Shown here one piece after another: positions 27,726 through 28,799 of a DNA stretch of 64,000 bases. The position numbers and the translations under genes are program-made. The notes under the pieces are model-generated. The model was not told the DNA's origin, made no database searches, and saw nothing but the letters and a program-made list of their open reading frames with translations. Within the stretch, counting starts at the first letter, position 1. Every line of letters starts with the position of its first letter. This DNA comes from Octopus vulgaris. Lineage: Eukaryota. Location of the stretch: positions 117,676,001 through 117,740,000 of the forward strand of contig OX597823.1 in NCBI GenBank assembly GCA_951406725.2. The letters are read 5' to 3'.

Positions 27726-28423
27726 ATATATACTTATAAATAAATATATATATACACACACACAAATATATATAGATATGTACATATACATACAATGTGT
27801 ATATATTCATATATATATATATATACACGCATGCACGCATGCACACACACACATAAGCAATTATGCAGATAAACAAATCAGACATATCAAACCTATAACA
27901 TATATTAAATACATCAAATAGAAAACATGAATCTATATATATATATACATGCAAAACACAAGAAAATAAAAGGTGAAAGCTTTCAGATGATGAATTTTTA
28001 TGTATAAATATAGAGATATTTATATTAATAGTTCCGAATTACACAGAGTCCAATGACAGAGAAAATAAAAGAGAAGGAAGAAAGGTGTTATAAACCCAAC
28101 AGCCGTTTCTGGGGGCTCAGTGATTCATAATACTGTTGGTGGATTTAGTTCATCACAATATGCAGCCATATGGATGCATTTAATATAGAATGAGACGAGC
28201 CTCTATAATCTAATCTGTTTATCTACATAATTGCCTTTATACCTGCTCAACTTGATCCCTCTTATAGCCTTTCTTTACCTTGCGGAATGATGCCCCGTAA
28301 AGACTTCGGAGTCTAAGTTTGAATCTTCTGAGCACTAACTAAGTGTCTTCTATACAGAGAATCTTGGGATCTCATCCGTGAACTATATATATCAAAATAA
28401 GCAACATGTATATCCAAGGTAGA

Positions 28424-28509
28424 GTAGTACAATTGTTTCATGCTACTTCATTTTATTAAACACTGTAAGTATTACATCAGTTTTAAAATGTCGAGCAATC
28501 TTCAGCCAC
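28424..28509 (-). ncRNA. Hammerhead ribozyme candidate with long stem II
   Basis: GTGG-CTGAAGA-[59 nt hairpin]-GAAA-CAATTG-TA-CTAC. Confidence 0.68.
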
Positions 28510-28571
28510 TTATAGAATTTTCCAATCAAACAGACAATGTGCATTGTGCGTTTGATTGGAAAATTCTATAT

Positions 28572-28657
28572 GTGGCTGAAGATTGCTCGACATTTTAAAA
28601 CTGATGTAATACTTACAGTGTTTAATAAAATGAAGTAGCATGAAACAACTGTACTAC
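28572..28657 (+). ncRNA. Hammerhead ribozyme candidate with long stem II (mirror copy)
   Basis: GTGG-CTGAAGA-[59 nt hairpin]-GAAA-CAACTG-TA-CTAC. One substitution breaks the stem III palindrome. Confidence 0.62.
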
Positions 28658-28799
28658 TCTACCTTGGATATACATGTTGCTTATTTTGATTATAATCACC
28701 CAATTTAATTTATATGGATAATACCATACAAAATTCTGGTGCCTTTAACTTAAGTACCATATTCATCTGAATCTAAATTTTGCTGAAACCACAGATCAG

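Follow-up and report, generated by a model that had tools for sequence, protein, structure and literature searches.

A hammerhead-bearing hairpin in the Octopus vulgaris genome, probably a short, doubly primed insertion of a Penelope-like element

The near-perfect hairpin at positions 28391 to 28690 of the window (the whole 64,000-nucleotide stretch of Octopus vulgaris DNA analyzed here) is probably one short retrotransposon insertion into a TA repeat: two 5'-truncated, ribozyme-bearing ends of the element face each other head to head, each likely primed separately. The parent appears to be a Penelope-like element (PLE) with motifs of the Hydra clade, an assignment made from sequence motifs of the reverse transcriptase (RT) and endonuclease gene. 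The locus is real and is ordinary retrotransposon debris with an insertion layout that has already been published; its less ordinary points are limited to a long stem II, a long tail, and an asymmetry in arm length. The features of the locus and the related features of the window are as follows.

28384 to 28390 (no strand): short (TA)n run, a target-site remnant, read from the sequence; (TA)n also flanks other copies
28391 to 28539 (minus): tail-less 5'-truncated element end (pLTR), beginning at the pLTR end, which is putative start site 0
28424 to 28509 (minus): type I hammerhead motif with a 59-nt stem II and a palindromic stem III, ACAAUUGU; predicted cut after A28428
28536 to 28545 (no strand): junction within a small palindrome of the parent sequence, AATG-TG-CATT, at which each arm breaks off; found at this locus only
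28542 to 28690 (plus): tail-bearing 5'-truncated element end
28572 to 28657 (plus): type I hammerhead motif with the stem III palindrome disrupted by C28649; predicted cut after A28653
28691 to 28787 (plus): one-sided tail of 97 nt, in longer elements the 5' UTR downstream of the pLTR; it ends at putative start site +97
28788 to 29493 (plus): unrelated 5'-truncated LINE, fused to the tail end via a common GCTGAA and occupying the place of the right (TA)n flank
47485 to 48986 (minus): 5'-truncated copy of a sister subfamily, ~1.5 kb, with a hammerhead at 47523 to 47608 and a GIY-YIG remnant at 48633 to 48986
23908 to 23997 (minus): likely RIC1 exon, downstream of the element; E value of 0.008 for the match alone, one of four colinear profile matches
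5801 to 5905 (minus): likely RIC1 exon, from a RIC1 profile match

The sequence-only reading had described an almost loopless 300-bp foldback with about four mismatches, starting after a short (TA)n run, and this description is borne out. The arms (28391 to 28539 and 28542 to 28690) are 149 nt long, 97% complementary, and 2 nt apart, with 4 mismatches plus a central T.G, and the TA run lies at 28384 to 28390. The extent given for the element holds for the palindrome itself (28391 to 28690) and falls short on the right, where the element continues for another 97 nt (28691 to 28787). The full element is thus ~400 bp (397 nt) and consists of two arms and a one-sided tail to the right of the right arm; its predicted folding energy is -245.5 kcal/mol, and none of 100 shuffles folded to an energy as low. 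A right TA run is absent because the truncated LINE, which we take to be RTE-like, joins the tail end by microhomology through the shared GCTGAA. This LINE itself terminates in (TA)n and has no Pfam match.

Mirror-image hammerheads with a long stem II, one on each strand of the hairpin, had also been proposed, and our motif check agrees with their positions. The motif in each arm comprises a 4-bp stem I, CUGAAGA, a 59-nt stem II, GAA, an 8-nt stem III, and the cleavage-site A, and the type I core (CUGANGA, GAAA, UH, and stems I to III) is present in both. A third motif is found on the minus strand from 47608 to 47523, and a strict motif scan counted four motifs in the window, whereas 100 block shuffles averaged 0.03 and never exceeded 1. 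The stem III palindrome is kept in the left arm and lost in the right arm through C28649, a variant carried by a single one of the 66 motif matches collected from 97 loci. In 57 of these 66 matches, U.U replaces the G10.1-C11.1 pair. The idea that U10.1.U11.1 marks a dead family is weakened by the supplement of PMC8557442, in which many Hydra hammerheads listed as canonical have U.U at 10.1/11.1. Rfam returned no hammerhead match at the gathering score or at an E value of ≤10, a failure that the long stem II probably explains, and its miRNA-model matches are generic hairpin matches below the gathering scores. In a pairing test, the named pairs formed in 94.4% of cells and 8 of 18 pairs had changed on both sides (0 of 500 shuffles), figures that are inflated both by the relatedness of the 10 motifs, hand-picked from the family itself and its sisters, and by the drawing of the structure from those same motifs. 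Folded in isolation, the hammerheads as a whole are no more stable than shuffles (z scores of -0.45 and -0.51); stem II alone folds better than shuffles (z score of -3.09).

Like the hammerheads described for the Hydra clade in the available part of PMC8557442, these are type I with a CUGANGA-U/U-GAA core. The stem II is different: it is 51 to 60 nt long across the motif-bearing families versus about 25 nt at most in the Hydra hammerheads listed there, and the hammerhead listed for Hydra-1_Obim, an octopus member of the clade, is a different sequence. The motifs resemble the minimal hammerheads of PLEs, as presented in the accessible text of PMC4209133, in having a short stem I and a palindromic stem III that implies action as a dimer, and they differ from them in the much longer stem II. 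The same source ascribes pairs of motifs on opposite strands, 100 to 700 bp apart, to truncated PLEs, and opposite-strand pairing is likewise what we observed here. A literature search, with most subscription journals outside its reach, found no direct description of the combination of hammerhead, Penelope, and octopus or of the long stem II.

The suggestion that the hairpin is an inverted Penelope-type pLTR is supported by longer copies. Walking upstream from tail-bearing copies led to decayed elements (L095 to L097) in which arm and tail are colinear with RT and GIY-YIG remnants, and these, with the sister copy at 47.5 kb, supply the link to a Penelope-like open reading frame (ORF) that had been put forward as a check. 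The sister copy had been read as a solo homolog of the left arm; the homology stands (78% over 47490 to 47628), and the copy is not solo, since it is the 3' end of a truncated element of ~1.5 kb. Pfam matched GIY-YIG in the decayed copies with an E value of 1.5e-4, just short of its cut-off, and recognized neither their RT pieces nor two whole ORFs. Intact ORFs were found in sister families only, with none for the window's own subfamily among the 150 scored of 8773 candidates. Uninterrupted ORFs of 842 to 1091 aa with Asn-rich inserts, together with near-identical pLTR pairs, occur in families L111, L112, L113, L114, L116, and L117, which were probably active recently and overlooked by Pfam; a PDB search with L111 gave 0 matches. 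The sister-family pLTRs hold hammerheads of the same long-stem-II type and have inverted partners. The best match to a named protein is from Octopus.

The parent shows the features of endonuclease-containing (EN+) PLEs, namely, a single ORF in which an RT is followed by a C-terminal GIY-YIG, and a pLTR with a hammerhead, 5' truncation, an inverted partner, and a one-sided tail. The Hydra clade, according to the portion of PMC8557442 available to us, has a C-terminal GIY-YIG without CCHH, DKT, a CxCX5C linker, CxxC, CxH, and (TA)n targets, and its members are generally <3 kb. The octopus elements share these motifs. DKT replaces DKG (PADKT in L097, L122, and five intact sisters); in L095, L097, L122, and the sisters, the CxCX5C linker is present, CCHH is absent, CxxC and CxH lie near the C terminus, and the GIY-YIG core has a single Cys; and copies are inserted in (TA)n. 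The N-terminal RWK, another motif of the clade, is present in L111, L112, and L117, with RWR, RWA, and RWI in L113, L116, and L122, and was not recovered in the window's own subfamily, whose copies are decayed. Unlike the Hydra elements covered there, the octopus elements have Asn-rich inserts, a 97-nt tail instead of 30 to 40 nt, and a length above the 3 kb that is a tendency of the clade and not diagnostic of it (~4.6 kb between hammerheads in L111, L112, and L114). The Neptune clade was rejected, as its expected CX2-5CxxC linker and CCHH are replaced here by CxCX5C and the two Cys residues between GIY and YIG are missing. The window also holds a broken PLE at 39945 to 41133 (plus), with an RT fragment and two Cys residues in the GIY-YIG core, whose clade differs from that of the hairpin's family.

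A genome search with the element, in which the best 40 of 1985 candidates were scored, returned dispersed near-full matches, and in their flanks homology continues for 97 nt beyond the right arm and is then followed by (TA)n. We describe a tail-anchored set, the best-scoring 40 of 900 candidates and not a random sample, in which an inverted arm is present in 24 copies and was not detected in 16. (Twenty-five copies were flagged automatically; L152 was dropped as a false match, and an ~20-nt stub in L128 was left uncounted.) The arm without a tail reaches to the pLTR end and its partner 97 nt beyond it, whereas the truncation points vary among copies. In all 24 copies the tail-less arm has its outer end no more than 6 nt from the pLTR end, which points to two fixed ends, 0 and +97. 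The pentanucleotide TTATA follows both ends in L122, whose tail continues into the 5' UTR, and ACTTATAT follows the tail in 25 of the 40 tail-anchored copies; in L113, TTTGTA and not TTATA follows the pLTR end (site 0). Folds revealed no clear pair of twin hairpins upstream of the two start sites, and only a short TTGCT precedes both ends.

We propose that the enzyme of the element would nick both DNA strands and start one cDNA at each of the two fixed RNA sites, with each nicked (TA)n end pairing with the TTATA that follows its start site. Both cDNAs would stop early and would then be joined via a short complementary stretch (here AATG/CATT), and the hammerheads would travel as passengers of the pLTR. 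We infer all of these steps from the structure of the insertions. The full account (double target priming by a dimeric enzyme at the pLTR end and the tail end, with the TATA of each RNA pairing with nicked (TA)n, sometimes on two RNAs, in elements with a long-stem-II variant unlisted for the clade) is tentative, and our confidence in it falls slightly under one-half. If true, it would account at once for the inverted arms, the one-sided tails, and the TA targeting. Another PLE, Poseidon of Anolis, offers an in vitro parallel in the part of PMC11167929 available to us: two internal RT start sites bound its tail, its target is AT rich, and both strands are cut and extended, as proposed here. A difference is that Poseidon lacks homology between its start site and the cut DNA, whereas TTATA could here pair with a (TA)n primer. 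Our literature search, with most subscription journals outside its reach, found no direct description of twin priming in Penelope.

The main rival starts from the same parent and forms the inverted arm by single-strand fold-back, or self-priming, at a small palindrome, with endonuclease trimming at the internal TTATA leaving the tail. Template switching of this kind had been one of two origins offered by the sequence-only reading; we judge it unlikely, although it keeps appreciable weight, and less likely than two separately primed cDNAs in view of arm lengths and mixed alleles. The self-priming model is the one favored in the accessible text of PMC3846280, with endonuclease-mediated resolution discussed in that of PMC8557442, and the centre of the window copy is indeed a small palindrome of the parent. 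The arm lengths are harder to accommodate: the tail-less arm exceeds its partner in 18 copies and falls short of it in 3, with 3 ties (sign test, P = 0.0015), a comparison that later deletions at the centre could alter. Fold-back of a tail-primed cDNA predicts a longer tail-bearing arm and fold-back of a site-0 cDNA predicts no tail, so two cDNAs of opposite strands fit the 18 of 21 unequal cases better. In the sister elements L111, L112, L114, and L117, the ORF is on the tail-less arm and the tail is on the inverted arm. Many junctions, moreover, have no overlap or have short inserted bases. At 15 of 177 diagnostic positions outside CpG, spread over 13 of 57 loci, the arms have different family alleles versus 1.5 expected by mutation, as two RNAs would sometimes give, although the sites were picked for variability, hypermutability of these sites is possible, and gene conversion could yield the same excess. 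Overall, arm alleles are discordant in 52 of 345 cases versus 158 if random, which means that a single template or lineage accounts for most pairs, as fold-back also predicts. The origin of the window copy itself is ambiguous because it has both one discordant-allele site (28510/28571) and a rare variant common to both arms (28406/28674), the latter agreeing with fold-back. The stubs and their intact sisters in the same genome provide counts and reagents for comparing double priming with fold-back as routes to inverted, tailed PLE insertions.

Other explanations fare worse. A nonautonomous, ribozyme-bearing foldback retroelement, or MITE-like unit, moving as a 300- to 400-bp palindrome had been offered as the second possible origin, and the 37 palindromes of similar size among the best 40 loci of the genome search seem to favor it; that size is imposed by the query, however. 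The tail-anchored copies range from 96 nt to about 1 kb, with 16 of 40 lacking a detected inverted arm, and do not have the fixed length and common centre of such units. The hairpin centres, whose comparison across copies had been suggested as the deciding check, vary as expected for independent events, and the junction pattern of the window matches the genome once (itself). The hairpin is therefore not mobile as a foldback unit, an idea that is already largely refuted and very improbable. An assembly or library fold-back artefact is the least credible explanation of all: a spanning contig is absent from four DNA runs, which is uninformative for a repeat, while against it stand the 4 differences between the arms, the presence of a tail on one side only, and the recurrence of this design, with other centres, on many contigs. 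Retention of this copy as a host regulatory hairpin in a RIC1 intron, as an editing substrate or ribozyme switch, is also highly doubtful. A likely intronic position and a predicted duplex of ~145 bp speak for it, whereas the divergence of the arms (4 of 144) is within the family range (background of 4.1%), one stem III is broken, and the layout repeats at many loci.

The layout of the locus agrees with published EN+ PLE insertions, which, in the available text of PMC3846280 and the legend of Fig. 2 of PMC8557442, include a head-to-head 5'-truncated copy, a one-sided tail, and a palindrome or short overlap at the junction. For Penelope-13_HM, PMC8557442 lists hammerheads on both strands and a 5'-truncated copy in inverted orientation. 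Unlike the insertions presented in these sources, both arms are here so short that the pLTR end alone remains, and the target duplication is unreadable within (TA)n. Non-LTR retrozymes, as outlined in the accessible part of bioRxiv 10.64898/2026.07.22.740005, share the type I hammerhead and PLE origin, but they are head-to-tail tandem units of fixed length, in contrast to the variable truncation seen here; we rejected this class for the locus, since its arms are head to head.

The sequence-only reading also placed the hairpin in a pre-mRNA, where it would sequester the ribozyme and might offer double-stranded RNA to ADAR or Dicer. The minus strand has four RIC1 profile matches in colinear order, of which the two in the window are weak alone, and these suggest that a RIC1 gene with very large introns likely spans the window; the likely upstream exon is 12.6 kb past the window end, and the element would thus lie within an intron of ~52.6 kb. 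The intron is therefore likely, and burial of the ribozymes is predicted by the fold: whichever strand is transcribed, the RNA has the antisense arm ahead of the ribozyme, so both hammerheads would be zipped into the duplex and silent, and cleavage is unlikely. Contigs of four presumed-RNA runs match the family, are not assignable to the locus, and contain no A>G cluster, an absence that is uninformative about editing. Octopuses are noted for heavy A-to-I editing, and any such duplex is likely to be edited incidentally, which would not demonstrate function. The importance of the family is modest, although intronic double-stranded RNA in octopus may come in part from such hairpins, of which there may be hundreds or more.

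Several further repeats occur in the window. A second, unrelated hammerhead foldback at 15718 to 16207 has 205-nt arms, a short-stem motif at 16000 to 16040 (plus), and a one-sided tail of ~50 nt on the left; it has 3493 genome candidates, varying centres, and flanks that are not TA. The sequence at 28100 to 28380, left of the hairpin, is repeated (raised contig depth) and does not match the 39.9-kb element. A Mos1-type transposase helix-turn-helix (HTH) fragment lies at 3599 to 3949 (minus), and a tandem array of 29-nt units, several of them identical, occupies 2682 to 3087.
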